Shown here one piece after another: positions 2,485-31,362 of a stretch of 33,827 bases of DNA (positions are counted from its first letter, which is position 1; each line of letters starts with the position of its first letter). Source of the stretch: Candidatus Woesearchaeota archaeon (GTDB taxonomy: Archaea; Nanobdellota; Nanobdellia; Pacearchaeales; GW2011-AR1); assembly GCA_964509925.1 (NCBI GenBank), contig CAZDZI010000004.1, forward strand, positions 1 through 33,827, read 5' to 3'. The position numbers and the translations under genes are program-made. The notes under the pieces are model-generated. The model made no database searches. It saw only the letters and a list, made by a program, of their open reading frames with translations, and was not told where the DNA came from.

Positions 2485-2622
2485 TTCTAAAAAAGAAAAT
2501 CCCGACTATAAAATAGTATTAAAAGGAAAAATAACTCCTTGTAACTAACACTTAGTGTAATTTTGAAGTTACTTAAAACTGTTGTCACCGTAAAGTTTAT
2601 AAAGAAAATAAGGCACGCTTTA

Positions 2623-2649
2623 TATACAGAAAAACAATTTTTCTGTATA
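2623..2649. promoter_or_regulatory. perfect 12-bp inverted repeat (TATACAGAAAAA-caa-TTTTTCTGTATA) upstream of the surface-protein gene
   Basis: Read directly from the sequence. It lies 28 nt upstream of ATG 2677 and about 20 nt downstream of the TATA-like aaagtttataaag (2592-2604), so it is at or near the predicted transcription start. Confidence 0.45.
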
Positions 2650-2676
2650 ATTAAAATGTATACAAAATACCATAAA

Positions 2677-3816
2677 ATGAACGCAAAGAAACTTATGGTT
2701 TCTTTTCTTGCAGTTGCTTTAGTATTAACTCTAGTAGCTACTGTAAGTGCCGCTACAGATATTGCTAATAACATAACTGTAAAGGTAAATGATGAAGATG
2801 CTGTTTACAATGATTTATCAGTTATTGCTGGTGAAACTGTAAATGTTAGAGTTGCTTTTAGTGCTCTATCTGATGCATCTGATGTGACTGTTAAAGCTGA
2901 AATTGAAGGTAATAAAGTTGATGTTAGTGAATTAACTGCTTCTTTCAATGTTGAAGAAGGAAGAAAATATGTTAAAACATTAAGTCTTGAAGTTCCTTAT
3001 GAACTTAAAGATGATCTTAGTGATGACATCTTACTTACTGTTACTGTTAAAGAAGACGGTAATTCTAAGACTGTAGTTGAATACGCTCTTAGAGTTCAAA
3101 GACCTTCATACAATGCAAATGTTATGTCAATTGTAACTCCAAATGCTGTTGAAGCTGGTGAAAATTTCCCAGTAGATATTGTATTAAAGAATGTTGGTTA
3201 CAATGACTTAGATGATTTGTATGTATCAGCTAAAATCACAGCTATTGATGGTGTTGAAAGAACTGTTTACTTCGGTGACCTAGTGGCTCTTGAAGATAAT
3301 TCTGAAAACGATGATGATTCAGAAACTACTACTGGTAGAATCTTCTTAGAAATGCCATTTAACGCAGAAGCAGGAATTTACGTACTTAAAGTTGAAGTTT
3401 TTAACGATGACTTTGAAGTAAGTAAAATGAAGCAAATTGTTGTGGAAAATGAATTCCCTAGTGAAGTAATGAAGGCAGGTAATGACTTGCTTATTGTTAA
3501 CCCAACTGAAAAGTTGAAAATTTACAAGGTTGTTTTCCCTAACACTGAAAGCTTTGTTACTGTCTCAGCAGGTTCAAGTAAAATAGTAGAAGTTACTCCA
3601 AACTCAGAAGAATACACAGTTAATGTGTTGACTATGAACGGAGAACTTGTTGACTCTTTCACATTTCAATCTGTTGAAGCAACATCAGTTACAAGTCCAA
3701 TTGTAGTATTAACTGTTATACTAGCAATAATCTTTTTAGTATTGTTAGTTGTGTTAATAGTATTGATTGGAAAGAAACCTGAAAAAGCTGAAGAATTCGG
3801 CGAAAGTTATTACTAA
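2677..3816 (+). CDS. cell-surface (S-layer-like) protein with signal peptide and C-terminal TM anchor
   Basis: Start moved to Met39 of the tracked ORF, giving MNAKKLMVSFLAVALVLTLVATVSA|ATD as a signal peptide. The body is Asp/Val/Thr-rich and beta-rich with two similar Ig/CARDB-like segments. The C-terminal TM is SPIVVLTVILAIIFLVLLVVLIVLIG, followed by a charged tail. Confidence 0.6.
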   Translation: MNAKKLMVSFLAVALVLTLVATVSAATDIANNITVKVNDEDAVYNDLSVIAGETVNVRVAFSALSDASDVTVKAEIEGNKVDVSELTASFNVEEGRKYVKTLSLEVPYELKDDLSDDILLTVTVKEDGNSKTVVEYALRVQRPSYNANVMSIVTPNAVEAGENFPVDIVLKNVGYNDLDDLYVSAKITAIDGVERTVYFGDLVALEDNSENDDDSETTTGRIFLEMPFNAEAGIYVLKVEVFNDDFEVSKMKQIVVENEFPSEVMKAGNDLLIVNPTEKLKIYKVVFPNTESFVTVSAGSSKIVEVTPNSEEYTVNVLTMNGELVDSFTFQSVEATSVTSPIVVLTVILAIIFLVLLVVLIVLIGKKPEKAEEFGESYY

Positions 3817-3915: not shown

Positions 3916-4293
3916 ATGGCAGAACAAAAAACCATATTATATTTTGAAGATGATCCTGGAGTAATTATGATGGCAGAAGATATTCTTGGTGAAAAATTTC
4001 CAAATCATAAATTAATAATTGATAAAGGTAAGGGAAATGCTTCTGAATGTGCTGATAGAGTTTTAGAAGATATTGGAGGCATTGAAAAAATAACTATTGC
4101 TATTACTGATGGTAATTTATTAAATTGTTCTGGGTGGGAAGTTATAAAGGAATTAAGAGATAGAGGTTATAACGGAAACGCGGTTTATGCTGGATTTGCA
4201 GACTTGCCAAAAGAATTTGAAAACCTATATCAAAAAAGAGTTGATAAGTTTAGTTTAGGTTCTGAATTAAAGACATTAGAACTTAATAATTAA
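3916..4293 (+). CDS. stand-alone CheY-like receiver domain protein (putative)
   Basis: At 125 aa it has receiver-domain size. It begins KTILYFEDDPG (acidic pair), has IAITDGNL as a candidate phospho-acceptor Asp, then GWEVIKELR. AGGTGA lies 7 nt upstream of the ATG. No kinase gene is in the window. Confidence 0.5.
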   Translation: MAEQKTILYFEDDPGVIMMAEDILGEKFPNHKLIIDKGKGNASECADRVLEDIGGIEKITIAITDGNLLNCSGWEVIKELRDRGYNGNAVYAGFADLPKEFENLYQKRVDKFSLGSELKTLELNN

Positions 4294-7151
4294 ATCTTCA
4301 AACTAACAATTTTAGATACACCATCATGCATACTAATTCCATATAGATTAGTTGCATTAGTAATTATTTCATCATTATGTGTTATAACTATATATTGTCC
4401 TTTTTGCATGTATTTTGTTAATAAACTAGCTAAACGCTCTGAGTTTCTTTTATCTAATGCAGCATCTATTTCGTCTAAGATATAAAAGCAATAAGGATTT
4501 AATTCTTGTATTGCAAAGATTAATGAAAGAGCCACAAGTGTTTGTTCTCCTCCTGAAAGAGATGTAACATCAAAGTATTTCCCGTGTCCTGTTTTAACAA
4601 GTATATTTACTCCTCCATCAAAAGGGTCTTTTCTGTTTTCTAATTCTAATGTTACTTGCCCCTTAGTTGAAAGTTGAGAAAAATTCCTAGAGAAAATATC
4701 ATTTAATTGCTCTAGTGTTTTTAAGAAAGTCTTTTTCTTTTTAATATCAATTTCATGAATTATCTTAAATATTCCTTGTTTTTCTTCAGCTAATACTTCT
4801 ACCTTTTCTTTAACTGAATCATATTCTTTTTTAATTTCATCATATACATCTAAAGAACGAAGATTTACACTTCCAATCTTATTTAATATTTCTTGTATCT
4901 TGTTTAATTTATGTAAGAGGGTTTCTTTTGAAGCTTTGATTAATTGAATATCTTTAAACTCAAGCATTTCCATTTCTAAATTTTCTATTTCAGCCCCAAT
5001 TCTGGCTTTTTCAATTTTATAATTATTTGCATCTTGTTCTAAATTATATGTTAAATTTTGTTTTAAGGATAACTCAGAATCTCCTTGTCTTATTTTAACT
5101 TGTAAAGAGTCTCTTTCTGAAATAAGTTTTTTGAATTTCTTTGCAAGTTCTTCGTCTTGTTGTCTTTTTTTGTTTAATGACTCTTCTTTTTGATTAATTT
5201 GTTCTTTTACTCTTGCAATTTCTTCATTTAAGTCTTCTTCTTCTCTTAATACTTGTTTTAGTGCTATTTTTGAACGTTCAAATTCACGTTGCTTAAATGA
5301 AATTTCTGAATTAACATTTTCTTTTGTTCTTAAAGAAATCTCTTGGATTTCAACTCTTGCTGTTTCATATTTTTGCTCAATATTTGAATTCTCATCAAAA
5401 TTAGCTTCTAAATATTTTCTTCTTTTTTCTAAATCTGTTAATTCATTTTCAGTTTTTTGTATTTTTTCTCTTAATGCTTTAATCTGCTCTTTTTTGCTAT
5501 CTATATTTGATAATTTTATTAAATCTGACTCACGTTTTGAAAGTTGATTTGATATTGATTCTATGTCCTGTTTCAATACTTTTCTTTTTGATTTAATGTC
5601 ATTAAGTTTCTTAGAAGACTCTTCAATTTCTTTTTTTAATGAAATTATTTTTGGTAGAACTTCATCTTTAATTCCTTTAATATGTTCAAGAGTTATTTTA
5701 TTTTTACATAATGGACAAATATCCATTTTTGCTATATTTTCTACTATTTTATTTTGCTTTCCTATTTCATATTCATTTGTGTGGGCAACTTTTCCAAGTT
5801 CTTGTTCTGATTTTTCAAGATTAAATAGTAAATCTTTTTTACCTTGCAATTGAACTCTTAATTCTGAAATTTTATTTGAAGAAGTTTTTACATCAAATAA
5901 CTCTGAGCTTAAAGATTCAAGTTCTTTTAATATAAAATTTGATTCATTTTTAAATCCAGATAAAAGATTTTTTTTATCTTGTACTCTTTCTAATATAGAT
6001 TTAAGTTCTGACTTAATCATATAGAATTTTTTTCTTTGTTCTTCAAGCTTTTCAAGTTCTTTTTTCTTTGATTCAATATCTTTTAGTTTTTGGGTATTGC
6101 TTGGAGTAGATGATTTTTGGAGTTCTTTTAATTCTAACTCATTCTCTCTAATAGAATTTTTCAGTTCTTGTTTTTGATTTTCAATTTCAGATAGTTTTCT
6201 TTCAGAATTTTCTAATTTAACTGTTAATCCAGCAAGTTCTGCTCTTAAATTAGCTATTTCTTGATTTAATTTTTCTTGTTCAAATCCAGTAGATTTTTGT
6301 ATTGTTGAATTAATTGTATCTATTTTAAGTTCATAATCTCTTATTACTGTTTCAAGATTTGTAATAATCTTTTTTACTTTTATTATTTCATTACCTCTTT
6401 TTTCTATCTCAAAATCAATTCCCTTCATCTCCTTTTGTTTTTTAGATAAATCATAATAAATTGCACTTGCCTTAAACCTTTCAGCATCTTTTTGTAATTT
6501 TTTATATCTTAATGCTTGTTGCCTTTCCTTTTCAAGATTATTCAAATATGCTGTTCTTTCTCTTAATACTGCCATAACTTCTTTTAGTCTTTCTTCTGTC
6601 TTATCTAATTCTTTGAGAGATTTTTGTTTTCGTGATTCATAAATTGAAATTCCAGATACTTCTTCTATTACTTTTCTTCTTTCTTCATTATGCATTCTAG
6701 CAAAATTCTGTATTTCACCTTGTAAAATTATATTAAATCCATTTGGATCAATTCCTGCCTGAGCCAATAGAGATAATACTTCTTGTCTTGTTTTAGTTTC
6801 TTGATTTATTTTATAGATGCTTTGTCCGTTTCTTCTTACTATTCTTTTTATTGAAACTTCTTTTTTATCTATTGAAAAAGTATTATCTGAATTATCAAAA
6901 ACAATCTCTACCTTTGCTTCTTTTGCTGGACCTACTGCTTTTGTTCCTAAAAAGATAAGATTTCTTGCTTTTGCAGCCCTCATTGACTTTATTGATAATC
7001 TACCTAAAACAAAACATAAGGCATCTGAGATATTAGATTTTCCAGATCCATTTGGTCCTAATACACAATTTATTCCAGGTGTAAAAGGTAATTCTGTTTT
7101 TCTTACAAAACTCTTGAATCCTTGCATCACCAATTTTTTAATATAAGCCAT
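4290..7151 (-). CDS. smc: SMC-family ATPase with central CxxC (Rad50-type) zinc hook and no recognisable hinge domain
   Basis: Start set at Met12 (MAYIKKLVMQGFKSF, typical SMC N-terminus). SMC-type motifs are Walker A GPNGSGKSN, SMRAAKARNLIF, Q-loop region ILQGEIQNFARMHNEERRKVIEEVSGI, signature LSGGEQTLVALSLIFAIQ, Walker B FYILDEIDAALD and the C-terminal GISMHDGVSKIVSL. The central ~600 aa is uninterrupted coiled-coil-like sequence, with CPLC encoded at 5706-5717. Confidence 0.8.
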   Translation of the reverse strand: MAYIKKLVMQGFKSFVRKTELPFTPGINCVLGPNGSGKSNISDALCFVLGRLSIKSMRAAKARNLIFLGTKAVGPAKEAKVEIVFDNSDNTFSIDKKEVSIKRIVRRNGQSIYKINQETKTRQEVLSLLAQAGIDPNGFNIILQGEIQNFARMHNEERRKVIEEVSGISIYESRKQKSLKELDKTEERLKEVMAVLRERTAYLNNLEKERQQALRYKKLQKDAERFKASAIYYDLSKKQKEMKGIDFEIEKRGNEIIKVKKIITNLETVIRDYELKIDTINSTIQKSTGFEQEKLNQEIANLRAELAGLTVKLENSERKLSEIENQKQELKNSIRENELELKELQKSSTPSNTQKLKDIESKKKELEKLEEQRKKFYMIKSELKSILERVQDKKNLLSGFKNESNFILKELESLSSELFDVKTSSNKISELRVQLQGKKDLLFNLEKSEQELGKVAHTNEYEIGKQNKIVENIAKMDICPLCKNKITLEHIKGIKDEVLPKIISLKKEIEESSKKLNDIKSKRKVLKQDIESISNQLSKRESDLIKLSNIDSKKEQIKALREKIQKTENELTDLEKRRKYLEANFDENSNIEQKYETARVEIQEISLRTKENVNSEISFKQREFERSKIALKQVLREEEDLNEEIARVKEQINQKEESLNKKRQQDEELAKKFKKLISERDSLQVKIRQGDSELSLKQNLTYNLEQDANNYKIEKARIGAEIENLEMEMLEFKDIQLIKASKETLLHKLNKIQEILNKIGSVNLRSLDVYDEIKKEYDSVKEKVEVLAEEKQGIFKIIHEIDIKKKKTFLKTLEQLNDIFSRNFSQLSTKGQVTLELENRKDPFDGGVNILVKTGHGKYFDVTSLSGGEQTLVALSLIFAIQELNPYCFYILDEIDAALDKRNSERLASLLTKYMQKGQYIVITHNDEIITNATNLYGISMHDGVSKIVSLKI

Positions 7152-7160
7152 TTGTAAGAC

Positions 7161-7200
7161 ACCTAACGGTTTCTTCACACTCAACTTCCCTTAAGATAGC
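7161..7200. promoter_or_regulatory. repeated intergenic motif copy A1 (TTCACACTCAA followed by CCCTTAAGATAG)
   Basis: It matches 22451-22490 at 29 of 40 positions, including the blocks acactcaac and taagatag. It lies between the SMC-like start (7151) and the RNase HII stop. Confidence 0.4.
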
Positions 7201-7323: not shown

Positions 7324-7989
7324 TTAGAATAGCCTTCTCTGTCCTAAACTTGCAACTGCCCTTTTCCATGTAACCCAAGTTTTTCTAAAGATTCCTTTAT
7401 TTTCATGCTTTATTGCATTTTTTGCTAAGAACTTACAAGTTAAAGAATCTGAACAATAACCAGAACCAATTTCTTCTCCATATATTTCCTTAAGTTTATC
7501 CATTTCTTTTTCTCTTGTGCTTTTTGCTAAAATAGATGCAGCTGATACTGAAATATGATTTTGGTCTGCTTTGTGTTCACAGCTTATTTCTAAGTTTGAT
7601 AAATTATGTATTTTAGTTTTAAGATAATCTTGCCATTTTAAGATTCCAACAGAAGGGCAATCCACAACTACTTGTAATCTTTTATATCCCTTATTTATTT
7701 TATTGATTATCTTAGCTGTTTTTATTGCTTCTAATTTGTTTAAGTCAATTCCTTCTTTATTTTTACCATCAATCTCAATTGGCGGTGCTAAAACTATTTC
7801 AAAAGTTTCTGCCATTTCTCTGATTTTTTCTGCTAAGAATTCTCTTCTCTTTGGAGTAAGCTTTTTAGAATCAGTAACTCCAAGTTTTTCAAATTCTTTT
7901 TCTGTTTTCTCATCTATTAAACATCCTGCAAGAACCATTGGTCCAATTACTGGTCCACGCCCTGCATCGTCTATTCCTAATTTAAACAT
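7324..7989 (-). CDS. rnhB: ribonuclease HII
   Basis: The N-terminal MFKLGIDDAGRGPVIGPMVLAG is the RNase HII catalytic Asp motif. The length (221 aa) and DSKKLTPKRRE and ASILAK segments are also typical. Confidence 0.85.
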   Translation of the reverse strand: MFKLGIDDAGRGPVIGPMVLAGCLIDEKTEKEFEKLGVTDSKKLTPKRREFLAEKIREMAETFEIVLAPPIEIDGKNKEGIDLNKLEAIKTAKIINKINKGYKRLQVVVDCPSVGILKWQDYLKTKIHNLSNLEISCEHKADQNHISVSAASILAKSTREKEMDKLKEIYGEEIGSGYCSDSLTCKFLAKNAIKHENKGIFRKTWVTWKRAVASLGQRRLF

Positions 7990-8842: not shown

Positions 8843-8865
8843 TAATTTTACTTAGGTTTTATTAT

Positions 8866-8939
8866 AGCAGGGTAGAGTAGCGGTTATCTCGCCGGGCCCA
8901 TAACCCGGAGTTCGCGTGGTTCAAGTCCCGTCCCTGCTA
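8866..8939 (+). tRNA. tRNA-Met (anticodon CAU), initiator-like
   Basis: Hand-folded cloverleaf with acceptor AGCAGGG/CCCTGCT (A1:U72) and discriminator A. The anticodon stem CCGGG/CCCGG has three G:C pairs next to the loop CCCAUAA. The T-loop is UUCAAGU. The T-stem needs one bulged U. CCA is not encoded. Confidence 0.75.
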
Positions 8940-8954
8940 TTATTTTCTAAACAC

Positions 8955-8969
8955 AAAAACCTTAAAAGC
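8955..8969 (+). promoter_or_regulatory. BRE/TATA-like promoter of tRNA-Ser
   Basis: aaaaaccttaaaagc ends about 23 nt upstream of tRNA position 1 (8992). Confidence 0.45.
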
Positions 8970-8991
8970 TAAGAACATATCAGAATAATAT

Positions 8992-9072
8992 GCCTCAGTC
9001 GCATAACGGTATTGCACCGGTTTGCTAAATCGGGCCCTTCGGGGCGAGTAGGTTCGACTCCTGCCTGAGGCG
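8992..9072 (+). tRNA. tRNA-Ser (anticodon GCU), type II with long variable arm
   Basis: Hand-folded with acceptor GCCUCAG/CUGAGGC and discriminator G. The anticodon stem is CCGGU/AUCGG with loop UUGCUAA. The variable arm is GCCC-UUCG-GGGC and the T-arm is GUAGG-UUCGACU-CCUGC. Confidence 0.8.
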
Positions 9073-9196
9073 TATTGTCGTCGAACAAGTTCGATAACCC
9101 CAAGGGCCACAAGGACCTGCAAGCAGGCTCCTGCCTGAGGCGTTTGTTTCAACAAACAATGCTATCAAATCCACATAATGATTTGCTTGAGGCGTT
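9058..9196 (+). repeat. direct repeats of the tRNA-Ser 3' end (two perfect 16-mers plus one degenerate copy)
   Basis: ctcctgcctgaggcgt occurs at 9058-9073 (inside the tRNA) and again at 9128-9143. tgcttgaggcgtt at 9184-9196 matches 12 of 13 positions. The spacers carry short palindromes: tcgaacaagttcga, cctgcaagcagg and gtttgtttcaacaaac. Confidence 0.8.
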
Positions 9197-20348: not shown

Positions 20349-20432
20349 GCGAGGGTGCCGGAGTGGTCAAACGGGCAGCCCTTAAGAGGCTGTAGCTTAG
20401 TGCTTACGCAGGTTCAAATCCTGTCCCTCGCA
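20349..20432 (+). tRNA. tRNA-Leu (anticodon UAA), type II
   Basis: Hand-folded with acceptor GCGAGGG/CCCTCGC and discriminator A. The anticodon stem is CAGCC/GGCUG with loop CUUAAGA. It has a long variable arm and T-arm GCAGG-UUCAAAU-CCUGU. Confidence 0.8.
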
Positions 20433-20444
20433 TTCGTAAGAAAA

Positions 20445-21014
20445 ATGGTAAATAAAACAATAAAGAAAAAATTAAGTATAATAATTCTTTGTATGATTTT
20501 ATTAATTAATTTGAATCTTGGTCTAATGGGAGGATTTGTTGAAGTTCAACCCTCACTCGTTTCTCCAATAGATTTAGTTTCCTCTCCTATTGTGCCTTCT
20601 GACACTCCTAATGAAAAATTATGGAGTGATGAGGGAATTTGTAAGCACATGAAAGGCTGTTGGATGGGAAATGAATGTTATCCATTTGGATATATAAAAG
20701 ATGGCTCTTACTGCTATGATAAAGCAGAATATTATTATTCTGGGTTTTACACAATTAATTTTGTAAACCAATCTAATTCTAATGAAAGATGTGAATATGA
20801 TTTTCAATGTAAAAGTAATGGGTGTTTTAATGGGAAATGTATGAGTGGCCTAAACACATTCATTAAAGATATTATGTCAAGATTAACAATTCTTGAAAAT
20901 AAAAAAGATTATCAAATTCCAGAAGAAAAACAAATGAATAATTCTAATCAAAGTTTAAAAGGTCCTCAAAAAAGTAATGGAATAACAGGATTTTTTACAA
21001 GGCTATTCAATTAA
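20445..21014 (+). CDS. secreted Cys-rich hypothetical protein
   Basis: The tracked ORF (from 20355) runs through tRNA-Leu, so the start is moved to Met31 (MVNKTIKKKLSIIILCMILLINLNLG, signal/anchor). The body has many Cys (CKHMKGCWMGNECY, CEYDFQCKSNGCFNGKC). Confidence 0.55.
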   Translation: MVNKTIKKKLSIIILCMILLINLNLGLMGGFVEVQPSLVSPIDLVSSPIVPSDTPNEKLWSDEGICKHMKGCWMGNECYPFGYIKDGSYCYDKAEYYYSGFYTINFVNQSNSNERCEYDFQCKSNGCFNGKCMSGLNTFIKDIMSRLTILENKKDYQIPEEKQMNNSNQSLKGPQKSNGITGFFTRLFN

Positions 21015-22490: not shown

Positions 22491-22540
22491 AACCTTCTTT
22501 TATTAGATAACTTAATAAATTAGTTTTTATTCTTTTAATT

Positions 22541-23068
22541 ATGAATAAAAGAGGTCAGTTTTATCTTGCAGCTGCAATTGTGATTGTTGTAGTAATTATT
22601 GGTTTTGCTGCAATTCAAAATTATACTAAAAAACAAAGTTCTAGCCAATTATATGATGTTAAAGATGAACTTGGCATTGAAGGAGGAAAAGTATTAGATT
22701 ATGGAACATATAATTTAGATAGTGAAGAAGATAAAGAACAATTACTAATAGATTTCACAAGTAATTATAGTGAATATGCAGGAGAAGAGAGAAACCTTTA
22801 CTTTGTGTTTGGGAATTCTGAAAAAATTTATGTAATAAAATATGAAGAAATTGCTAGTGGAAGCATTTCTATAAATATTGGGGGCATAACATCTGGATTA
22901 GAAACTTATACTAGTGGAGGAGAAATAGAATCTTATGTTCCTGAAGGAAATGAAGTTATAATTACAATTGACGGGCTTGATTATGAGTTTGAATTAAAAA
23001 GAGGGGAGAACTTTTATTTTATAATTTCTCAAGATATTGAAGGAGAGCAACATGTGGTTATTTCATAA
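22541..23068 (+). CDS. prepilin-like protein (class III signal peptide)
   Basis: The N-terminus MNKRG|QFYLAAAIVIVVVIIGFAAI has a short basic leader ending in Gly, then a hydrophobic helix. It is the first gene of the filament locus. Confidence 0.65.
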   Translation: MNKRGQFYLAAAIVIVVVIIGFAAIQNYTKKQSSSQLYDVKDELGIEGGKVLDYGTYNLDSEEDKEQLLIDFTSNYSEYAGEERNLYFVFGNSEKIYVIKYEEIASGSISINIGGITSGLETYTSGGEIESYVPEGNEVIITIDGLDYEFELKRGENFYFIISQDIEGEQHVVIS

Positions 23069-23567
23069 AAAAGGTGTAAGCATAATGATTGGTTATGTAT
23101 TATTAATTACATTTGCAATAATAATTGGAGGAGTAGTATATACTTGGATGAGTTCTTATGTTCCTACTGAAACTATTGAATGCCCAGATGGTGTTTCTAT
23201 TTTTATTAAAGATGTTGAATGTTCTATTGTTGAAGGAGAGTATCAATTAGCATTAAATATTACAAATAATGGAAGATTTGCTATTGATGGTTATTATCTT
23301 AAAATTTCTAATAATCCTGATATTCCCATTGGCACTATTCCTGTTACAGAAATTATTTCAGGTGGACAATCAGCTCAAGGAGGAATTATTCTTTTTCCTG
23401 GAACAAATTTAGAGCCAGGAAAAAATTCTCTAGGAAATATTTTTAAATTAAGTGAAAAAGCATATATGGTAGAAATTACTCCAATTAGATATAATATTAT
23501 TGATAATAAAAATAGGTTATCTATTTGTGGTAGTGCTAAGGCTAGTGAAAAAATAAGCTGTGAGTAA
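23052..23567 (+). CDS. archaeal pilin-like protein (DUF361/FlaG-FlaF-type N-terminus)
   Basis: Start at ATG 23052, with GGAG 6-8 nt upstream. The N-terminus is MWLFHKKG|VSIMIGYVLLITFAIIIGG, and the beta-rich body includes ITNNGRFAIDGYYLKI. It overlaps the upstream gene by 17 nt. Confidence 0.65.
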   Translation: MWLFHKKGVSIMIGYVLLITFAIIIGGVVYTWMSSYVPTETIECPDGVSIFIKDVECSIVEGEYQLALNITNNGRFAIDGYYLKISNNPDIPIGTIPVTEIISGGQSAQGGIILFPGTNLEPGKNSLGNIFKLSEKAYMVEITPIRYNIIDNKNRLSICGSAKASEKISCE

Positions 23568-23601
23568 TTAAATTTAAATAGTAAGATTAATTTAGGATAG
23601 A

Positions 23602-24063
23602 ATGAAAAAGAAAGGAGTGTCGCCAGTTATTGCTACAGTATTATTAATTGGTATGGTTATTGTTCTAGGACTTATAATATTTTTATGGATGAGGGCTTTA
23701 GCTCAAGAAACAATTACAAAATTTGAAGGAGAAAATATTGAACTTGCTTGTGATAAAGTTCAGTTTGAAGTAAGTAAAGTTGGTAGTCAAATAACAATTC
23801 TTAATTCTGGAAATACTCCTATTTATGATTTTAATATTAAACTCTCTAGCCTAGGAGCTTTTGAAACTAAAAAAGCAAGAGATTTATTTTATAGCTGGCC
23901 AAAATATGGATTAAATCCTGTAGGTGTGTTTTCTGAAGATTCAAGTGAACTAGAAAGTGCTAGTGAGATAATTATTACTCCAATTTTGCTAGGAGTATCT
24001 GAGACTGGAAGTCAAAAGACATTTATTTGCAATGAAAAAAGACATGGACAAGAAGTTTTCTAA
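23602..24063 (+). CDS. archaeal pilin-like protein (canonical KGVSPVIATVLLI N-terminus)
   Basis: MKKKG|VSPVIATVLLIGMVIVLGLIIF is the classic archaeal type IV pilin N-terminal domain. Confidence 0.75.
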   Translation: MKKKGVSPVIATVLLIGMVIVLGLIIFLWMRALAQETITKFEGENIELACDKVQFEVSKVGSQITILNSGNTPIYDFNIKLSSLGAFETKKARDLFYSWPKYGLNPVGVFSEDSSELESASEIIITPILLGVSETGSQKTFICNEKRHGQEVF

Positions 24064-24064
24064 A

Positions 24065-24565
24065 ATGAATAAAAAAGGTATTTCAGGTGTTGTTGCAACA
24101 GTTATTATGATTGCATTAGTTCTTGCTGCAGTTGCAATTGTTTGGGGGGTTGTTACTAATCTAATTGAAGATCAGTTAGAAGAATCTGAAAATTGTTTTA
24201 ATATCTTTGATAAAATTTCATTAAATTCAGCCTATACTTGCTATAATACTTCTAATAATAAACTTCTTTTTTCAGTAAGTGTTGGCGATATTAAAGTAAA
24301 TAAAATTCTTGTTTCTATTTCTGGACAAGGAACAACTAAAAGTTATACTCTTGCAAGTGAAGAGCAAACAATTACTGGGTTAACTATGTATCCTGGAGGA
24401 GAAAGCGAAATTATTATGCCTGAACAAAATGCTGGATTAACATATATTTCAAGTGAATTTCCATCAACGCCAGATTCAATAAGAATATCTCCTATTATTG
24501 GGGAGACTCAATGTGGAGTTACAGATTCTATTTCTCATATTGAGAGCTGTGCACTACTAGCATAA
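24065..24565 (+). CDS. archaeal pilin-like protein
   Basis: Start moved to Met12 of the tracked ORF (ATG 24065, directly after the upstream stop). The N-terminus is MNKKG|ISGVVATVIMIALVLAAVAIV. Confidence 0.7.
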   Translation: MNKKGISGVVATVIMIALVLAAVAIVWGVVTNLIEDQLEESENCFNIFDKISLNSAYTCYNTSNNKLLFSVSVGDIKVNKILVSISGQGTTKSYTLASEEQTITGLTMYPGGESEIIMPEQNAGLTYISSEFPSTPDSIRISPIIGETQCGVTDSISHIESCALLA

Positions 24566-24654
24566 TCCTAAAGAATCAACAAAGTCATTTGATTAGAGAA
24601 AGTAAATATTATAAAGCAATTTCTACTAAAGATAATATAAAAAGAGAGATACAG

Positions 24655-25179
24655 ATGAATAATAAAGCTCAAATCTGGATTGAAACAGTGATATATACAT
24701 TAATTGCATTTGTTTTAATAGCGGCTGTGTTAGCATTTGTAAAACCAAAAATTGATGAGCTTCAAGACAAAGCAATAATTGAACAATCAATTAGTATGCT
24801 AAAAGATGTAGACTCCACTGTTAGAGATGTTGTTCAAGGAGGAAGTGGAAATAAAAGAAAATTAGAGATTGGGATAAACAAAGGAAATTTTCAAATTGAT
24901 GGGGAAAGTAATTTATTATTATTTGAAATTGAAAGTAATTTTATCTATAGTGAAATTGGAAAAGAGATTTATGATGGAAATATCATTATTAAAACAAAAG
25001 AATTAGGGGATAAAGGGATTGTTACATTAAAAAGAGTTTACGAGGATTATAATATTACATTTAATAATAAGGAGGCTATAAAAACAATTGGCAAGGCTGC
25101 AACATCATATAATTTATTTGTATCAAATAAAGGAAGAAATGAAAATGATACTTGGCAAGTAGATTTTGAATTAAATTAA
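24655..25179 (+). CDS. prepilin-like protein with Glu at +5
   Basis: Start moved to ATG 24655 (the tracked ORF begins at TTG 24589). The N-terminus is MNNKA|QIWIETVIYTLIAFVLIAAVLAF. Confidence 0.6.
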   Translation: MNNKAQIWIETVIYTLIAFVLIAAVLAFVKPKIDELQDKAIIEQSISMLKDVDSTVRDVVQGGSGNKRKLEIGINKGNFQIDGESNLLLFEIESNFIYSEIGKEIYDGNIIIKTKELGDKGIVTLKRVYEDYNITFNNKEAIKTIGKAATSYNLFVSNKGRNENDTWQVDFELN

Positions 25180-25180
25180 A

Positions 25181-26737
25181 ATGATAAAGGAAAACACAGA
25201 CATAAGTAAGTTTCCAAAAGTAGAGATTAATTTTAATCCAAAGATTCCTTTATTAAAAAAAATTGCAGATAAATCTCATGTAAATGTTAGATATGGTTTA
25301 ATTTCCCCATTTGCTTATGCACATATTCATTGGGATGAAAAAAGATTTGAATTAGTTTATGATATTGAAGAACCAATTTTAAATAATCAAGAAATACAAT
25401 ATAAAAATGACCTTATCTCTGCTATGAAAGAAATAATTAATTTTGAAAAAGTAGTAGAAAAGAAAAAAGAATCTTTATTAGAATATCTAGACAAAATGTT
25501 TAGGGTTTTAGCTGTTGAATTAGGAATGACTATGAACTATGAAAGTTATAAGAAGATTTTTTATTACATTGTAAGAGATTTTATGGGATTTAATGAGATT
25601 GAACCTTTACTAAGAGATTATTTTGTAGAAGATATTGAATGCAATGGTGTTGGCTCTCCTGTTTATCTTGTTCATAGAATTTATAGGAATTTGAGAACAA
25701 ATCTTACATATAAAAGTATGGATAAAGTAGAGGGTTTTGTTGAAAAACTTGCTCAAAGAAGTGGAAAATATATTTCATATTCTAATCCTATTTTAGATGC
25801 AAGTCTTCCCGATGGTAGCAGAGTTAATGCAACTTATACTAAAGACATTACTAGTAAAGGTCCTACATTTACTATTAGAAAATTCACAAAAACTCCTTGG
25901 ACTCCCCCTCAATTATTAGCATTTAGAACTCTTAGTCCTGAGATGCTTTCTTACTTATGGCTTTTAACTCAATATGGTTCAAATATTCTTATTGCAGGAG
26001 GAACAGCTTCTGGAAAAACTACTTTATTAAATGCCATGGCTTTTTTTATCCCTCCAGAAAAAAGAGTTGTTAGTATTGAAGATACAAAAGAATTAAATCT
26101 TCCAAGAGAAAACTGGCTTCCCAGTGTTGTTAGAACAGCCACAGGAGTTGGAGGGGCTGGAGAAATAGACTTATTTACCTTGCTTAGAGCTTCATTTAGA
26201 CAAAATCCAGATTATGTAATCGTTGGTGAAGTTAGAGGTAAAGAAGCATATGTATTGTTTCAAGGAATGGCTTCAGGACATTCCTCAATTGGAACTATTC
26301 ACGCAGATTCTGTTGACACTGTAATAAAAAGACTAGAAAGTCCTCCAATAAGTTTATCTCCTACTTTAGTTAATTTGCTTGATTGTGTATGTATTATGAG
26401 TCATGCAAGTGTACAAGGGATAGAAACAAGAAAATTAAGAGAAATGGTAGAAGTGTTAGATGTAGATAACGCAGGAGTTGCTTTGACAAATAAACCATTT
26501 ATCTGGAATGCTCAAGAAGATAATTTTTATTATAAAGAAGGTAATAAGATGTTTGAAAAAATTGCAATAAGAAATGGCTTGAAAATGGAAGATTTAGAAA
26601 GAGAATTTAAAAGAAGATCTGAATTATTAAGAAAAATGCATAAACAAAAAATATTCAAATTCAAGCAAGTTCAGGATTTAATTAATGAATACTATAAGAA
26701 ACCTCAAGAGGTTTTGAAAAGATTTGGTATTAGGTGA
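25181..26737 (+). CDS. type IV filament assembly ATPase (FlaI/PilB/TadA, GspE superfamily)
   Basis: Motifs are Walker A GGTASGKTT, SIEDTKEL, Walker B/Asp box PDYVIVGEVRGKEA, His box GHSSIGTIHA and the N-terminal ECNGVGSPVYLVH segment. It is 518 aa long. Confidence 0.85.
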   Translation: MIKENTDISKFPKVEINFNPKIPLLKKIADKSHVNVRYGLISPFAYAHIHWDEKRFELVYDIEEPILNNQEIQYKNDLISAMKEIINFEKVVEKKKESLLEYLDKMFRVLAVELGMTMNYESYKKIFYYIVRDFMGFNEIEPLLRDYFVEDIECNGVGSPVYLVHRIYRNLRTNLTYKSMDKVEGFVEKLAQRSGKYISYSNPILDASLPDGSRVNATYTKDITSKGPTFTIRKFTKTPWTPPQLLAFRTLSPEMLSYLWLLTQYGSNILIAGGTASGKTTLLNAMAFFIPPEKRVVSIEDTKELNLPRENWLPSVVRTATGVGGAGEIDLFTLLRASFRQNPDYVIVGEVRGKEAYVLFQGMASGHSSIGTIHADSVDTVIKRLESPPISLSPTLVNLLDCVCIMSHASVQGIETRKLREMVEVLDVDNAGVALTNKPFIWNAQEDNFYYKEGNKMFEKIAIRNGLKMEDLEREFKRRSELLRKMHKQKIFKFKQVQDLINEYYKKPQEVLKRFGIR

Positions 26738-26785
26738 TTAAATAGAATTAATCTCTTTTCCTTTAAAGAACCTTATTTAAAATTA

Positions 26786-28150
26786 TTAAAGTGTTATTCT
26801 TAACAACATAATAACTCCAATTAATATAATCAAGATTGAACTAATTAGTTTAAGAATATTATATCCTTTAAATTCTTCAGGAATGAAATTAAATGCTTTT
26901 TTGAAATGTAGGAATAGGAAAGATATTGCTAGGATTGTTGAAATTAAACCTAAAGAAAAGAAAAGCAATGAAAATAATGCTTGATAATACAAGTTCAATG
27001 AAATTAATATTGAAAATAAAAGCCAAGCAGTTGGGCATGGTGCAAGTCCAGCTAATATTCCTATTGAAAAAAGATTTTTCTTCTCTGATTTATGATGATG
27101 TGAAGGGTCATGTTCGTGATTATGCATGTGATCATTCTCGTAAGTATGTAAGTGAGTATGTTCATGAGGATGTTTGTGGGGATGTTCATGACTATGTCCG
27201 TGATGGTGATGTGTATGAGCCTTATTTTTACTAATGTTTTTTAAGAAGAAATTTATACCAAACATAATTATTAAAAGTGCAGCAAAAATTGTTATATAGT
27301 TCATATATTCATTTTTTAAGCTTAGCGGCAAAAATAAAAAAACAAAACTCAACAATAACACATCTAAAACATGGGTTGTTGCAGTTGTTAAAGAAAGAAT
27401 TAAAATATCTTTATTAGAAACTTTTTTCCCAATAATATACGAAACAATTAAAGATTTTCCATGACCTGGAGAAAAACTATGTAATACTCCTAAAAAAAAG
27501 GAAAAAATAAGAAATAAGAAAAAGTACTCTTTCTTTTTTGAAAGTTCAATAACCTTATTAAAAATATTGGAATTCTCTTGTATTTTAGTTTCATTTAATT
27601 CTTCTTGGAGATTGATACTATCAAAGTTTATTTTGCCTGGATTAATGCCACAAATTTTAGAATAATTATACTCAATCTCAGGTAGAGTCATGTCTGTATA
27701 AATAACTTTCACTGAATTTGTACAATTTACTACATAATATTGTTCAAAATAATATCCTGTCTTTTCGTAAAATAAATTATTTTTTAAATTTAAAGAATTA
27801 ATATTTGAAAAACATTCATAAGTAACATTATATCTTTCAACAGAACTAGATAAATCAAAGAATTTTGAGAAGGATGATTCTACTAGAGAACATTCTTTTC
27901 CATCTTGAATTATGGTTAAGTTTTTGTTAAAGTTTTGAATAGAATAATTAAAATAATCAAAACCACTGCATTGATAATCATTACAAAACATAGGTACAAC
28001 TATCTCCAAATTTAAGGTATTATTTTCTGTTTCAATAAAGATATTTGAATAAGGAACTGAATGTGCTTGAGAAACCGGGATTATTAGTAAAAAAAGGAAA
28101 AATAATAAGATTAAACTTATCCCGAATCTTTTATTGGTTTGGATTATCAT
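26786..28150 (-). CDS. RcnA/NicO-family nickel/cobalt transporter with N-terminal extracellular domain and His-rich loop
   Basis: NicO signatures HSFSPGHGKS and GLAPCPTAW are present. The cytoplasmic-loop stretch HTHHHHGHSHEHPHKHPHEHTHLHTYENDHMHNHEHDPSHHH (27092-27217) has 21 His in 42 residues. An N-terminal signal peptide is followed by a ~180-aa Cys- and NxS/T-rich domain. Confidence 0.7.
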   Translation of the reverse strand: MIIQTNKRFGISLILLFFLFLLIIPVSQAHSVPYSNIFIETENNTLNLEIVVPMFCNDYQCSGFDYFNYSIQNFNKNLTIIQDGKECSLVESSFSKFFDLSSSVERYNVTYECFSNINSLNLKNNLFYEKTGYYFEQYYVVNCTNSVKVIYTDMTLPEIEYNYSKICGINPGKINFDSINLQEELNETKIQENSNIFNKVIELSKKKEYFFLFLIFSFFLGVLHSFSPGHGKSLIVSYIIGKKVSNKDILILSLTTATTHVLDVLLLSFVFLFLPLSLKNEYMNYITIFAALLIIMFGINFFLKNISKNKAHTHHHHGHSHEHPHKHPHEHTHLHTYENDHMHNHEHDPSHHHKSEKKNLFSIGILAGLAPCPTAWLLFSILISLNLYYQALFSLLFFSLGLISTILAISFLFLHFKKAFNFIPEEFKGYNILKLISSILIILIGVIMLLRITL

Positions 28151-28310
28151 TATAAAAAATAAAAATCATAGTGATTTATAAAGATTCTTTTTTAAGGGGG
28201 CTTTTTCATACCCCTCAAGGGCACAAGTAAAAAATTCTTTAGAGTATAACTAGAAAGAATTTTATTCGATAAACACAATCTTTAATAATATATTTTTCTT
28301 CAGTCTTTTA

Positions 28311-28475
28311 ATGAAAAAAGAGGATATATCTTTTCTTATGCAATTAGTGGAATCTTTAGAAGATTCTGAAAAAAAATTAGAAGAAATTTACAAAAAACAA
28401 GATGTGAATGAATTCAATAAAATAAAAAAGTTTATGTTAGAAATGCAATCACAAATCTCAGGATTATTAAAATGA
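28311..28475 (+). CDS. small coiled-coil ORF (54 aa) translationally coupled to the platform gene
   Basis: It is below the ORF-track cutoff. Hand translation gives MKKEDISFLMQLVESLEDSEKKLEEIYKKQDVNEFNKIKKFMLEMQSQISGLLK. Its TGA overlaps the downstream ATG (ATGA at 28472-28475). Confidence 0.45.
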   Translation: MKKEDISFLMQLVESLEDSEKKLEEIYKKQDVNEFNKIKKFMLEMQSQISGLLK

Positions 28476-29824
28476 TTATAAAAACTTCAATAATGGATTT
28501 AAAAGAAAAGATTTTTAGAGAAGCTAAAACTGCTAAAGAAATTAATTCTTTGTATAATGGGTTTGAAAGTAGTAAAGACCCTTCAGAAAAGGAAATGATT
28601 GATTCTCAGATTAAATCATTAACTATTGCTCTTAAAAAGAATAACGAGGATTTAAAGACAACACTTCAATCATTACATCTTACAAAAAAATTATCTGAAA
28701 TTACAAATATGCCAAAACCTCAAAGAAATATTCCCTCACTTCCTGCAACATTAAAACCCCTTGAACATAGCATTACAAAGCCTTCTCTTAAAATAGCTCA
28801 ACCTATTCCAAAGACTATGGTTAAAAAAACAGAATTTAAATTAACTGATTTAGAAAAAGAAACTTTAAAGAGACTAAGAAAAAAAGAAAAGAAAGTTGAA
28901 ATTAAAAAAGAAAGAAAACCAAGTCTTTATGTTAGAACATCTAATAAATTCTTTTCAAAAATTTCAGGTAAATTATTAGACAAAGGATATTTTAGAACTA
29001 TGAAAAGAAATTTGATTAAATCAAATATGCCTTACTTATCAAAGAGCTATGTTTCAATGATGTTTTTTTCATTAATTATATCTTTTTTTGTTGCTTGTGT
29101 AATTGTAGGAGTTTTATTATTTGTTAATGTGGGGGTTTCATTTCCTTTTATTAGTCTTGTAACAAGAGGTTTTGCAACAAGGCTTTTAGCACTTTCATGG
29201 TTATTGCCAGTTATTCCTCTGGGAACATTCTTAATTATGTATGTTTATCCTGCATTAGAGAAAAAATCTATTGAAGCTAAGATAAATCAAGAACTGCCTT
29301 TTGCAACAATACATATGGCAGCTATTTCAGAATCCTCTATAGAACCAAGCAATATATTTAAAATAATTGTTTCAACAAAAGAATATCCTACTCTTCAAAA
29401 AGAATTTATTAAATTACTTAATGAAATAAATGTTTTTGGATATGATTTAGTTACTGCTCTAAGAAATCTTGCATTTAATAGTCCAAGTAAGAAACTTACA
29501 GAATTATTTGATGGGTTAGCTACAACAATAACTACTGGAGGAGATTTATCTGACTTTTTTGGTAAAAGAGCTCAAACACTATTATTTGATTATAGATTAG
29601 AAAGAGAAAAACAAACAAAATCAGCTGAAACATTTATGGATATTTATATTAGTGTTGTTATTGCAGCTCCAATGATATTAATGTTATTATTAATTATGAT
29701 GAGAATTAGTGGATTAGGTATTTCATTAAGTGCAATAATGATTTCAGTTGTTATGTCTTTAGGTGTAGCAATAATAAATGTCGCGTTTTTAACATTTTTA
29801 CAATTAAAACAACAAAATCAATAA
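28472..29824 (+). CDS. type IV filament platform protein 1 (T2SSF domain; FlaJ/TadB/EpdJ-like) with long N-terminal extension
   Basis: The T2SSF-like segment is ELPFATIHMAAISESSIEPSNIF...GYDLVTALRNLA...LFDGLATTITTGGDLSDFF, flanked by TM helices. The first ~190 aa are a charged soluble extension. Confidence 0.75.
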   Translation: MIIKTSIMDLKEKIFREAKTAKEINSLYNGFESSKDPSEKEMIDSQIKSLTIALKKNNEDLKTTLQSLHLTKKLSEITNMPKPQRNIPSLPATLKPLEHSITKPSLKIAQPIPKTMVKKTEFKLTDLEKETLKRLRKKEKKVEIKKERKPSLYVRTSNKFFSKISGKLLDKGYFRTMKRNLIKSNMPYLSKSYVSMMFFSLIISFFVACVIVGVLLFVNVGVSFPFISLVTRGFATRLLALSWLLPVIPLGTFLIMYVYPALEKKSIEAKINQELPFATIHMAAISESSIEPSNIFKIIVSTKEYPTLQKEFIKLLNEINVFGYDLVTALRNLAFNSPSKKLTELFDGLATTITTGGDLSDFFGKRAQTLLFDYRLEREKQTKSAETFMDIYISVVIAAPMILMLLLIMMRISGLGISLSAIMISVVMSLGVAIINVAFLTFLQLKQQNQ

Positions 29825-29825
29825 A

Positions 29826-30659
29826 ATGGCAATAAAAGGTTTTCACTTTGTTGGAATTTTTTTAGGGTTAGTTGTAACAGGATTATCTTTTTTATTTTAT
29901 GGTGAAGCAATATTTTTCTTTTTAATTGGAATAGGAATTTTAATTGCTGCTTCTCCAATGGTTATAGGAGTTATTAAAAATACTACTGTTGCAAATGAAA
30001 AAGAAGAAATGTTTTTAGAGTTTGCAAGAAATCTTGTTGAAAGTGTTAATACTGGAGCTCCAATAAGTAAGAGTATTTTAAATGTTAAAGAAAGGCCTTA
30101 TGGAGTTTTAGGACCTCATGTAAAAAAACTTGCTAATCAAATACAATTAGGGATTCCATTAAACAAAGCACTTACAACTTTTTCAAAAGATGTTAATAAT
30201 AAAACAATTTCAAGAGCATTGACTTTAATTGGTCAGGCAGAGAGAGCAGGAGGAGATATTGGGGTTATTCTTGAATCAGTTGCTGAAGCAGTTAGTATGT
30301 CAGAAAAATTAAAGAAAGAAAGAAAAGCTGCTATTTCCACATTAGTTGTTCAGGGATATATTATCTTTGTTGTATTTATTATTATTGTTTTAGTTATGCA
30401 ATTTAGAATTCTTCCAATGATTTCAGGTATTGCAGATGTTGGAGGAGCAATAGGGCTTGGTGAAGGTGGACAGACAATAGATCAATCAGAAATATCAAAT
30501 GCATTCTTATATTTACTTTTGATTCAAGGACTTTTTAGTGGATTAACTATTGGTAAGCTTTCAGAGAATAATGTAAAAGCAGGGATTAAACACTCTTTTA
30601 CTCTAATGTTCTTATCATTTATAATTTCAGCAGGAGCAAATCTTTTATTTGGAGCTTAA
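29826..30659 (+). CDS. type IV filament platform protein 2 (T2SSF domain; FlaJ/TadC/EpdK-like)
   Basis: The T2SSF-like segment is FLEFARNLVESVNTGAPISKSI...LGIPLNKALTTF...LIGQAERAGGDIGVILESVA, flanked by TM helices. It starts 2 nt after the upstream stop. Confidence 0.75.
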   Translation: MAIKGFHFVGIFLGLVVTGLSFLFYGEAIFFFLIGIGILIAASPMVIGVIKNTTVANEKEEMFLEFARNLVESVNTGAPISKSILNVKERPYGVLGPHVKKLANQIQLGIPLNKALTTFSKDVNNKTISRALTLIGQAERAGGDIGVILESVAEAVSMSEKLKKERKAAISTLVVQGYIIFVVFIIIVLVMQFRILPMISGIADVGGAIGLGEGGQTIDQSEISNAFLYLLLIQGLFSGLTIGKLSENNVKAGIKHSFTLMFLSFIISAGANLLFGA

Positions 30660-30660
30660 A

Positions 30661-31362
30661 ATGAATCGTAAAGCATCACATGTGGGAGTAGTTTTATCTT
30701 TTGTTATATTTATAACATTTATTATTTTTTTATATTCTATAACTGAACCAGCTACAACTGTTGATAGAGGCAAGGAAGATTTATTAGAATATCTTAAAAC
30801 AGAATTAATTAGAGATTTTAGTGCAGATATGACAACTGAAACAATTTTGATAAAAGACTCTGTTGTTTCTGACTGTGTTCGTATTGATACTGAAGATGGG
30901 GATTTAACTACCATAGCTAAAGATGAAGAAACAGGGAACATCCTAGAGTCGTATTTTGATGGAAATAAAGTAGAAATAAAAAGAAATAGTGCTACTAATT
31001 TAAAAGTATATTATTCTGAAGAATTTCCAGAAATATATTCTAGCTTAGGTTGTACTGACTTAAATGAAGAGGATTATGAATTTGGGTTAGTAAGAACAAT
31101 GGAAGAGATATTTGAAAGTAGAATATTAAACTTTTCAAATTTTATTAATAACTCTCAAGGCTATGATTCAATAAAAGAGGAATATAATATTCCTCCTGGA
31201 AGTGAATTTGGTTTTGCTTTTGAAGATGGAAATAGAAATGTTCTTGTTGAAACACAAGATAAAGATGTCTCAACAGATATTTATGTTAATGAAGTAACAA
31301 TCCAGTATATTGATAACGAAGCTAATATAAAGCCAGGGTTCATTAGGATAAAAGTATGGTGA
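30661..31362 (+). CDS. prepilin-like protein
   Basis: Start moved to ATG 30661, just after the upstream stop. The N-terminus is MNRKA|SHVGVVLSFVIFITFIIFLY, followed by an acidic globular domain. Confidence 0.55.
   Translation: MNRKASHVGVVLSFVIFITFIIFLYSITEPATTVDRGKEDLLEYLKTELIRDFSADMTTETILIKDSVVSDCVRIDTEDGDLTTIAKDEETGNILESYFDGNKVEIKRNSATNLKVYYSEEFPEIYSSLGCTDLNEEDYEFGLVRTMEEIFESRILNFSNFINNSQGYDSIKEEYNIPPGSEFGFAFEDGNRNVLVETQDKDVSTDIYVNEVTIQYIDNEANIKPGFIRIKVW

Follow-up and report, generated by a model that had tools for sequence, protein, structure and literature searches.

The function of the hinge in SMC proteins has long been debated, the domain having been seen as a passive dimeriser, as a DNA-binding site or as a DNA entry gate, and the strongest evidence that its fold is irrelevant has come from an artificial protein, a Bacillus subtilis Smc that carries the hook of Pyrococcus Rad50. 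This engineered Smc(Zh), with the zinc hook of P. furiosus Rad50, supports normal growth with near-normal association of the arms, and it shows the same arm-length dependence as hinge-bearing Smc, the function of which depends periodically on the length of its arms (Buermann et al. 2017, PMC5344682); hook/hinge interchange experiments were also reported by Tatebe et al. 2020 (PMC6969161). Among natural proteins, zinc hooks are found in the ASRPs (coalescin ClsN, Sph1/2), which are ATPases of the SMC superfamily (PMC9389158), and a hinge-less SMC has been described from marine Actinobacteria, explicitly without a CxxC motif (Sussfeld et al. 2025, PMC12153180). The SMC survey of Yoshinaga and Inagaki (PMC8665677) counts DPANN archaea as having a "canonical aSMC" and makes no mention of hooks. 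Here we analyze an smc gene in a stretch of 33,827 nucleotides from a Candidatus Woesearchaeota archaeon (contig CAZDZI010000004.1, positions 1 to 33,827; hereafter the window), which an earlier note, made from the sequence alone, had singled out as encoding SMC-type heads joined by a zinc hook.

The protein encoded by this gene has SMC-type heads, no hinge and a Rad50-like hook at the apex of its arms, an architecture that is fixed across a large clade, with locked arm lengths and with synteny to hinge-type smc genes. It is very probably an orthologue of the hinge-bearing chromosomal SMC, encoded by a DPANN archaeon of the Pacearchaeota type, in which the hinge was swapped for a Rad50-type zinc hook while the SMC heads and arms were kept. 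Such a protein would be the natural counterpart of the hand-built Smc/zinc-hook chimera and would interest those who study SMC proteins. The literature searched, in which subscription journals were thinly covered, did not describe any natural zinc-hook SMC, although an earlier mention is possible.

SMC-type heads, no hinge and a Rad50-like apex

The complete coding sequence lies at 4290..7151 on the minus strand, as do all the protein features given below, and was delimited from the list of open reading frames (ORFs), a start alignment of 103 homologues, and the matches to SMC_N and TIGR02169. It consists of 2,862 nt in one continuous reading frame, with an ATG at 7149-7151 and a stop codon at 4290-4292, and encodes 953 aa. 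An alternative TTG start would extend the ORF to 4290..7184 and add 11 residues; since the homologues in the 103-sequence alignment start at the equivalent of Met12 of this longer form (MxYIKKL), the 953-aa reading adopted in the earlier note is correct. All of the motif strings quoted there are present in the translation, and CPLC falls at the exact midpoint of the protein, at residues 479-482 (nt 5706-5717), as had been claimed.

The N-terminal half of the head comprises residues 1-167 (6651..7151), which are 49-50% identical to the Pyrococcus Smc head structures, and the C-terminal half comprises residues 828-953 (4293..4670), as defined by alignment to the Pyrococcus Smc C-head; invariant columns support both assignments. 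Walker A (GPNGSGKSN) occupies residues 32-40, with GPNGSGKS at nt 7035-7058, and the N-terminal half also carries SMRAAKARNLIF, the invariant R58 in SMRAAK and a Q-loop, ILQGEI (ILQGEIQNF...). In the C-terminal half, the signature motif LSGGEQTLVALSLIFAIQ starts at residue 865 (LSGGEQ, nt 4542-4559) and the Walker B/D-loop FYILDEIDAALD at residue 889 (FYILDEID, nt 4464-4487); GISMHDGVSKIVSL and the H-loop residue H925 are also in this half. Walker A, R58, the Q-loop, LSGGEQ, the Walker B/D-loop and H925 are invariant across the family in the 103-homologue alignment, and the ATPase therefore looks functional.

Profile and structure comparisons agree on the type of head. Pfam assigned SMC_N to residues 3-946 (2.2e-54), and in NCBIfam the best models were the archaeal-type SMC model TIGR02169 (524.7 bits) and TIGR02168 (512.8 bits), each matching in two stretches; those of TIGR02169, for which the cutoff of 729.4 was not reached, flank the missing hinge. 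The NCBIfam Rad50 models gave about 104 bits at best against cutoffs of 700-1087, the ASRP/ClsN model NF045487 gave 113.5 bits against a cutoff of 300 with a match to the N-terminal head only, and the arcadin-4 model gave 47 bits against a cutoff of 860. A phmmer search of the PDB ranked the Pyrococcus Smc heads first (5xei, 1.6e-104), each head half being about 50% identical; bacterial Smc and eukaryotic Smc2/3/1/4 came next, and the Rad50 heads appeared only at about 5e-15. Similarly, when the full-length AlphaFold2 model was compared with Foldseek, condensin Smc4, Smc5/6 and P. yayanosii Smc led the ranking and Rad50 came at rank 13. Judged by sequence, the heads of the window protein are thus of the SMC type and not of the Rad50 type, in agreement with the earlier note and with the placement of the heads in the tree described below.

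No globular hinge separates the two arm strands. SMC_hinge (PF06470) gave no match even at E<=10, either with the full window protein or with residues 400-560, and a local hidden Markov model (HMM), built from six Pfam-verified hinges, recognised hinges in 100 of the 151 cluster representatives and none in the 35 hook-type proteins; hinge and hook were mutually exclusive, with none of the representatives carrying both. In the AlphaFold2 model, helices run up to residue 475 and resume at residue 488, with nothing globular at the apex. When hook-type proteins were aligned with their nearest hinge-type relatives using MAFFT, residues 471-494 (ENIAKMDICPLCKNKITLEHIKGI) were found where the hinge types have two insertion blocks, each of ~75-82 residues; these blocks correspond to the hinge, and the arms were colinear on both sides. 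Some 24 residues thus take the place of the hinge of ~150-160 residues found in the nearest hinge-bearing relatives. Hinge boundaries were set by HMM and MAFFT, since BLASTP alignments run through the coiled coils and are unsuitable for this purpose. The claim that the coiled coil is continuous and has no globular hinge is accordingly borne out by PF06470, by the local HMM and by the 12-residue tip of the model.

The tip itself consists of residues 476-487 (MDICPLCKNKIT; 5691..5726), a segment delimited by conservation, by the profile match to 1L8D, by PF04423, by Rad50 models and by the model of the fragment. C479, P480, C482, T487 and H490 are invariant in sets of 116 and 103 sequences, with T487 inside the tip and H490 just past it, in the first turn of the next helix; K483, I486 and I494 are at least 97% conserved, and the surrounding arm is variable. 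A midpoint CP[LIV]C is present in all 120 close homologues and a midpoint CPxC in all 34 distant hook-type cluster representatives, down to ~38% identity, so that CPxC is invariant in 154/154 hook-type sequences, as it is in a diverse set of 50. The core shared with the Rad50 hooks is C-P-x-C-x3-[IL]-T-x-E-H, and alignment to 1L8D confirmed the Pyrococcus Rad50 hook string (AKGKCPVCGRELTDEH) that the earlier note had quoted.

To place the apex, we combined 50 diverse segments of 94 residues in a profile and compared it with 177,635 distinct PDB sequences. The P. furiosus Rad50 zinc hook 1L8D ranked first (E 3.3e-7), the rod form of the same hook, 6ZFF, second (E 3e-6), the human RAD50 hook 5GOX third (E 0.002) and full-length human RAD50, 9Q9H, fifth (E 0.011). 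Rad50_zn_hook (PF04423) matched 40 of the 50 segments at E<=0.01, the best at 1.3e-7, and two full-length members of the family exceed its Pfam gathering score (24.8 and 26.6 vs 24.3). Archaeal Rad50 models of NCBIfam matched 43 of the 50 segments at central model positions (~394-483 of ~875; best E 2e-11), while the ASRP model (35/50, best 3.5e-6) and the arcadin-4 model (26/50) gave weaker matches than Rad50, and no SMC model of NCBIfam matched any of the 50 segments. A model of residues 421-540 (predicted local distance difference test, pLDDT, 91.9) consists of two long helices joined by the 12-residue tip, and Foldseek placed the 1L8D chains at ranks 1-2, 5GOX at rank 4 and the C. thermophilum hook 7ZQY at rank 13. 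At the level of the family, the apex hook is statistically Rad50-like, and the resemblance to the Pyrococcus hook proposed in the earlier note is supported by the family profile, by PF04423 and by the Rad50 models.

Family distribution, arm length and ancestry

More than 150 independent sequences from NCBI, JGI, ENA and Logan assemblies share the length and the midpoint motif, and among 124 relatives detected, 80 GTDB species-representative genomes encode a protein that is 57-79% identical; nearly all of these genomes are metagenome-assembled genomes (MAGs) labelled Pacearchaeota, Woesearchaeota or Nanoarchaeota. An exhaustive search of 1.84 billion cluster representatives at 50% identity showed that the hook-type SMC is closest to canonical DPANN SMCs. 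Relatives of ~946-1023 aa matched end to end in one stretch, down to ~38% identity, and all had the hook, while those of the next tier, with 1050-1200 aa, matched in two stretches at 31-39% identity and all had a hinge. Each of the 80 species genomes yielded one hook-SMC locus; the paralogy of a single apparent duplicate (L032/L033, in CAZOAN01) was rejected, because the same 9-kb region occurs twice at 99.9% identity, indicating redundancy of the bin. One hook-SMC contig (L056, DATKUW010000087.1) lies in a MAG labelled 'Bacillota bacterium' and is probably mis-binned, given its GC content of 31% and its archaeal gene set. Neither Pfam nor NCBIfam has a model specific to the family, and the source annotations vary between "hypothetical protein", "AAA family ATPase" and "SMC family protein"; with such annotation and with scores below the cutoffs, an SMC could be wrongly recorded as missing when the genomes of these archaea are surveyed.

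The arms that connect heads and apex have the length of canonical SMC arms. The N-terminal arm strand spans residues 168-475 (5727..6650; AlphaFold2 helices 168-344, 356-416 and 425-475) and the C-terminal strand residues 488-827 (4671..5690; helices 488-587, 591-605, 615-730, 742-759 and 765-827), in a full-length model computed from the 103-sequence alignment with a mean pLDDT of 75.4 and values of mostly 80-92 in the arms. Non-helical segments of low pLDDT interrupt the two strands at residues 345-355 (6087..6119; pLDDT <50), which contain P350, conserved in at least 90% of sequences, and at residues 606-614 (5310..5336), which belong to a block of local conservation (residues 601-625, mean entropy 0.69). 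In the model these breaks are opposite each other in the antiparallel arm, and they are a candidate for an elbow- or joint-like interruption.

Arm lengths in the family are close to fixed. The distance from Walker A to the first cysteine is 446 aa in 95 of 139 members; from this cysteine to LSGGE, 119 of the 139 share a distance of 386 aa, which stays at 385-387 in members with just 43-49% identity. A proxy for arm length ranges from 412 to 431 in hook types (mode 416, which is also the value of the window protein), compared with 400-451 in canonical hinge-bearing relatives, and the retained arms, of ~310 residues and antiparallel, are of canonical SMC length. These fixed natural lengths fit the periodic arm-length dependence of Smc (PMC5344682).

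The hinge-bearing DPANN relatives in the representative set fall into discrete classes of the arm proxy, ~255-272, ~328-338 and 400-451, which echo the multimodal distribution of arm lengths in Buermann et al. 2017 (PMC5344682). Short-arm hinge-bearing relatives include P0201, P0212, P0219, P0232, P0239, P0241, P0248 and P0250 (799-852 aa), together with P0154, P0157 and P0229 (943-963 aa), and P0216 (968 aa) has kept only some half of the hinge (29 bits, over profile positions 2-63 of 116). Another group of ~780-800 aa, P0140 (804 aa), P0143 (801 aa), P0144 (779 aa) and P0146 (781 aa), has neither hinge nor CxxC; their heads are 43-46% identical to that of the window protein, their named members are Pacearchaeota, and they have ~150 central residues fewer than the hook type, equivalent to the hook and ~75 residues per arm. 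One group of organisms thus spans a gradient at the apex, from hinge through half hinge and hook to nothing, with discrete classes of arm length. In five hook-type relatives (P0016, P0020, P0108, P0124 and P0129; 1476-1485 aa) there is an intein of ~525 residues, with Hint and LAGLIDADG homing endonuclease domains in precomputed Pfam annotation; it is located inside the Walker A P-loop, as homology to the query resumes at about residue 37-38.

We investigated the ancestry of the heads by joining their two halves in one alignment of 357 columns and 110-117 taxa and computing a neighbour-joining tree, with P. yayanosii Smc as the root. All hook types were found in one clade nested among hinge-bearing SMCs. 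The clade that consists of the hook types and the four short hookless proteins received a bootstrap value of 91.5%, while the hook types alone were monophyletic in 0 of 200 bootstraps; since the hookless proteins fall inside the hook clade, a secondary loss of the hook is suggested for them. Sequences longer than 1300 aa were left out of the bootstrap, and the intein-bearing P0124 fell outside the hook clade in an initial tree, the intein being part of its N-terminal 175 residues. In the nearest hinge-type clusters the named members are Woesearchaeota, and the named members of the hook type and of the short hookless proteins are Pacearchaeota.

Gene order links the two forms. At 64 of the 81 hook-SMC loci, a gene of the RNase HII family lies directly upstream of smc, and RNase HII is also found just upstream of a hinge-type Woesearchaeota smc (locus L082). 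This shared synteny indicates that the hook protein is the orthologous chromosomal SMC, and it supports the description of the gene in the earlier note as the apparent chromosomal SMC of its archaeon. As the arms are colinear and the arm-length proxy is within the canonical range, the exchange appears to have affected the hinge alone and to have happened a single time, at the native locus. The hook most likely arose once in the ancestor of the clade by recombination with a hook-bearing gene, for which rad50 is the best match.

Proposed mechanism and alternative explanations

In the mechanism that we propose, Cys479 and Cys482 from each of two protomers would share one tetrahedral Zn2+ at the tips of the arms, and the two invariant cysteines per chain are consistent with such four-cysteine dimerisation by Zn2+. 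The product would be a constitutive Zn-bridged homodimer, probably with juxtaposed arms as in the engineered chimera. ATP would drive engagement of the intact SMC heads, and a kleisin encoded elsewhere would presumably bridge the heads and close the ring, permitting entrapment of DNA or extrusion of loops, so that the chromosome would be organised as it is by Smc-ScpA(B). The hook would supply dimerisation only, and the arms would transmit the mechanics.

There is about an even chance that, in this species-rich Pacearchaeota-type lineage, the only chromosomal SMC is hingeless, following one replacement by a Rad50-derived hook, and that several sub-lineages later lost the hook together with ~75 residues per arm. 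If so, nature has already run the Smc(Zh) and mini-Smc experiments, and the hinge, including its proposed roles in DNA binding and as a gate, would be dispensable in vivo, with selection preserving the length of the arms. A natural family that is fixed in its clade, with intact ATPase motifs and length-locked arms, provides independent evolutionary support for the irrelevance of the hinge fold. It would also be a clear example of a domain exchanged between the SMC superfamily's two oldest branches, and it offers ready-made proteins for biochemistry and for single-molecule loop-extrusion assays.

Several points weigh against the proposal of a chromosomal SMC with an exchanged hinge. Zinc binding and dimerisation are deduced from homology. 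The apex of the window protein itself scores only 10.9-16.2 bits for Rad50_zn_hook, under the cutoff of 24.3, and the claim of a hook therefore rests on the family rather than on a single sequence; of the resemblance that the earlier note had suggested checking with this model, the family-level part stood, with 40 of 50 segments and two members above the cutoff, whereas the window sequence alone stayed below threshold. The Foldseek match to 1L8D, although top-ranked, was not significant (E 0.022), and the values in the list, 0.02-0.15, were similar for generic helical hairpins, so that the structure is consistent with a hook but not decisive and lends weak support. The head tree was built by neighbour-joining with a simple distance over 357 columns and not by maximum likelihood, and the SMC count covers the hook-type locus of each genome, no search for a second, hinge-bearing SMC having been made. 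Recombination, moreover, is not separable from convergence on a motif of ~12 residues within a compositionally biased coiled coil. Finally, searches for a kleisin (ScpA/ScpB) were negative for the window, for the 20 annotated neighbour families (drawn from 1,161 clustered ORFs at 81 loci) and for 1.1 Mb of flanking sequence in the 80 genomes, where neither a bacterial ScpA HMM run against all six-frame ORFs nor an archaeal ScpA motif used as a regular expression gave a match. These negatives concern the loci and their flanks, and absence from the genomes is not shown; since the hinge-type Woesearchaeota smc locus likewise has no adjacent scpA, the missing linkage is uninformative.

The proposal must also be weighed against other accounts of the same protein. 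A divergent Rad50/SbcC repair ATPase mis-read as an SMC would explain the zinc hook, the lack of a hinge and a length close to that of Rad50 (953 aa vs ~880 aa), and the Rad50 models of NCBIfam do align end to end, with 104 bits, the hook segment matching best to Rad50 models. The heads nevertheless favor Smc by 1.6e-104 against 5e-15 in the PDB and by 524.7 against 104 bits (Rad50 cutoffs 700-1087), and the head tree nests the protein within hinge-bearing SMCs at 91.5%. Rad50/SbcC usually has its partner nuclease Mre11/SbcD encoded next to it. Pfam searches of the 30 window ORFs, however, found no ScpA, ScpB, Mre11 or Rad50, which extends to the whole 33.8-kb window the earlier statement that no ScpA/ScpB or Mre11 gene is adjacent, and no metallophosphatase/Mre11 gene is among the conserved neighbours of the 80 loci, where the surroundings are instead syntenic with those of hinge-type smc. 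This account is thus very improbable and can be regarded as effectively refuted. Still less credible, to the point of being negligible, is an assembly or frameshift artefact that deleted the hinge, which has nothing in its favor except the unusual length: the frame is continuous, more than 150 sequences have the same length and motif, and the protein recurs in 80 GTDB species genomes, with 120 close and 34 distant homologues of the same length from independent assemblies.

The two remaining accounts accept an SMC with a hook and differ over its origin or its role. An accessory SMC-like paralogue, acting in defence or repair beside a canonical Smc-ScpA, much like ASRP/ClsN, Wadjet JetC or Lamassu LmuB, could be suspected because no kleisin gene is linked and because the main condensin is not usually one of the SMC-like proteins that bear a hook. 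We consider this improbable, since the gene sits in a housekeeping context (RNase HII, DnaG-like Toprim, EF-1alpha, D-Tyr-tRNA deacylase) rather than in a defence island, its RNase HII-smc arrangement is common to hinge-type Woesearchaeota smc, likewise without adjacent scpA, and the protein is closest to canonical DPANN SMCs, scores 113.5 against the ASRP cutoff of 300 and showed one hook-type locus per genome in 80 species. Somewhat less remote, though still unlikely, is a convergent hook, in which the hinge was deleted and a metal-bridging CxxC tip evolved afresh with no contribution from rad50 or another hook gene. The shared core is short, its flanks are Lys/Glu/Leu-rich coiled coil, which inflates the scores of profiles, the structural match to 1L8D is non-significant, and the occurrence of hooks in ASRP/ClsN and arcadin-4 indicates that the solution recurs. 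Against this, Rad50 hooks accounted for four of the top five matches in a PDB set that includes thousands of coiled coils, Pro, Thr, Glu and His are conserved beyond the cysteines at identical spacing, and the 43 matching segments align to the exact centre of the archaeal Rad50 models. A convergent and an acquired hook would differ in history, while architecture and mechanism would be the same.

The genomic window and relation to described systems

The window has a GC content of ~29%, and its other genes are those of an archaeal housekeeping region, encoding a DnaG-like Toprim protein, RNase HII, D-aminoacyl-tRNA deacylase, class I tRNA synthetases, TrmB, Dus, a thioredoxin-reductase-like protein and SNase, together with a type IV pilus cluster and three tRNAs. 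The RNase HII gene (7324..7989, minus strand; PF01351, 4.8e-46), immediately upstream of smc, is a conserved syntenic neighbour of hook-type smc and not a functional partner. On the opposite strand, positions 2563-3816 (+) encode a 417-aa protein with an N-terminal signal- or transmembrane-like segment, repeated Ig-like segments and a C-terminal transmembrane helix, with faint FixG_C similarity in one homologue; its family is found beside the hook-SMC gene in 52 of 81 loci, a linkage that is probably plain synteny and not functional. A 125-aa ORF at 3916-4293 (+), convergent with the SMC gene and overlapping its stop codon by 4 nt, had no Pfam match at E<=0.001.

Further from smc, tRNA genes were located on the plus strand at 8865-8940 (Met-CAT), 8991-9073 (Ser-GCT) and 20349-20432 (Leu-TAA); the stretches of two ORFs that run into these tRNAs, 8940-9155(-) and, over its first ~25 codons, 20355-21014(+), are therefore spurious. 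At ~22500-31400 (+) there is a type IV pilus/archaellum-like cluster, in which several small pilin-like ORFs (Pilin_N 5.9e-4) are accompanied by genes for a PilB/T2SSE ATPase, at 25181-26737, and for two T2SSF membrane proteins, at 28472-30659.

Among the described systems, the hook-type protein resembles the prokaryotic and archaeal Smc of Smc-ScpAB, with which it shares the heads (49-50% identity), the ATPase motifs, the arms of ~310 residues, the housekeeping context and the RNase HII-smc synteny seen with hinge-type DPANN smc; it differs in having no hinge but ~24 residues with CPxC instead, and in scoring below the TIGR02169 cutoff. With the Rad50/SbcC hook (PF04423; 1L8D, 6ZFF, 5GOX) it shares the same motif at the tip of an antiparallel coiled coil, whereas its heads are not of the Rad50 type, it has no Mre11 neighbour and its arms align with SMC arms. 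The ASRPs (NF045487) are proteins of ~590 aa with divergent heads, in contrast to the 953 aa of the hook-type SMC, which groups with true SMCs. The hinge-less SMC of marine Actinobacteria also combines SMC-type heads and arms without a hinge, but it is bacterial and has no CxxC, and the four short hookless relatives are nearer to it than the window protein is. The engineered Smc(Zh) has the same domain plan and is man-made, whereas the hook-type SMC is natural and is fixed across an archaeal clade.

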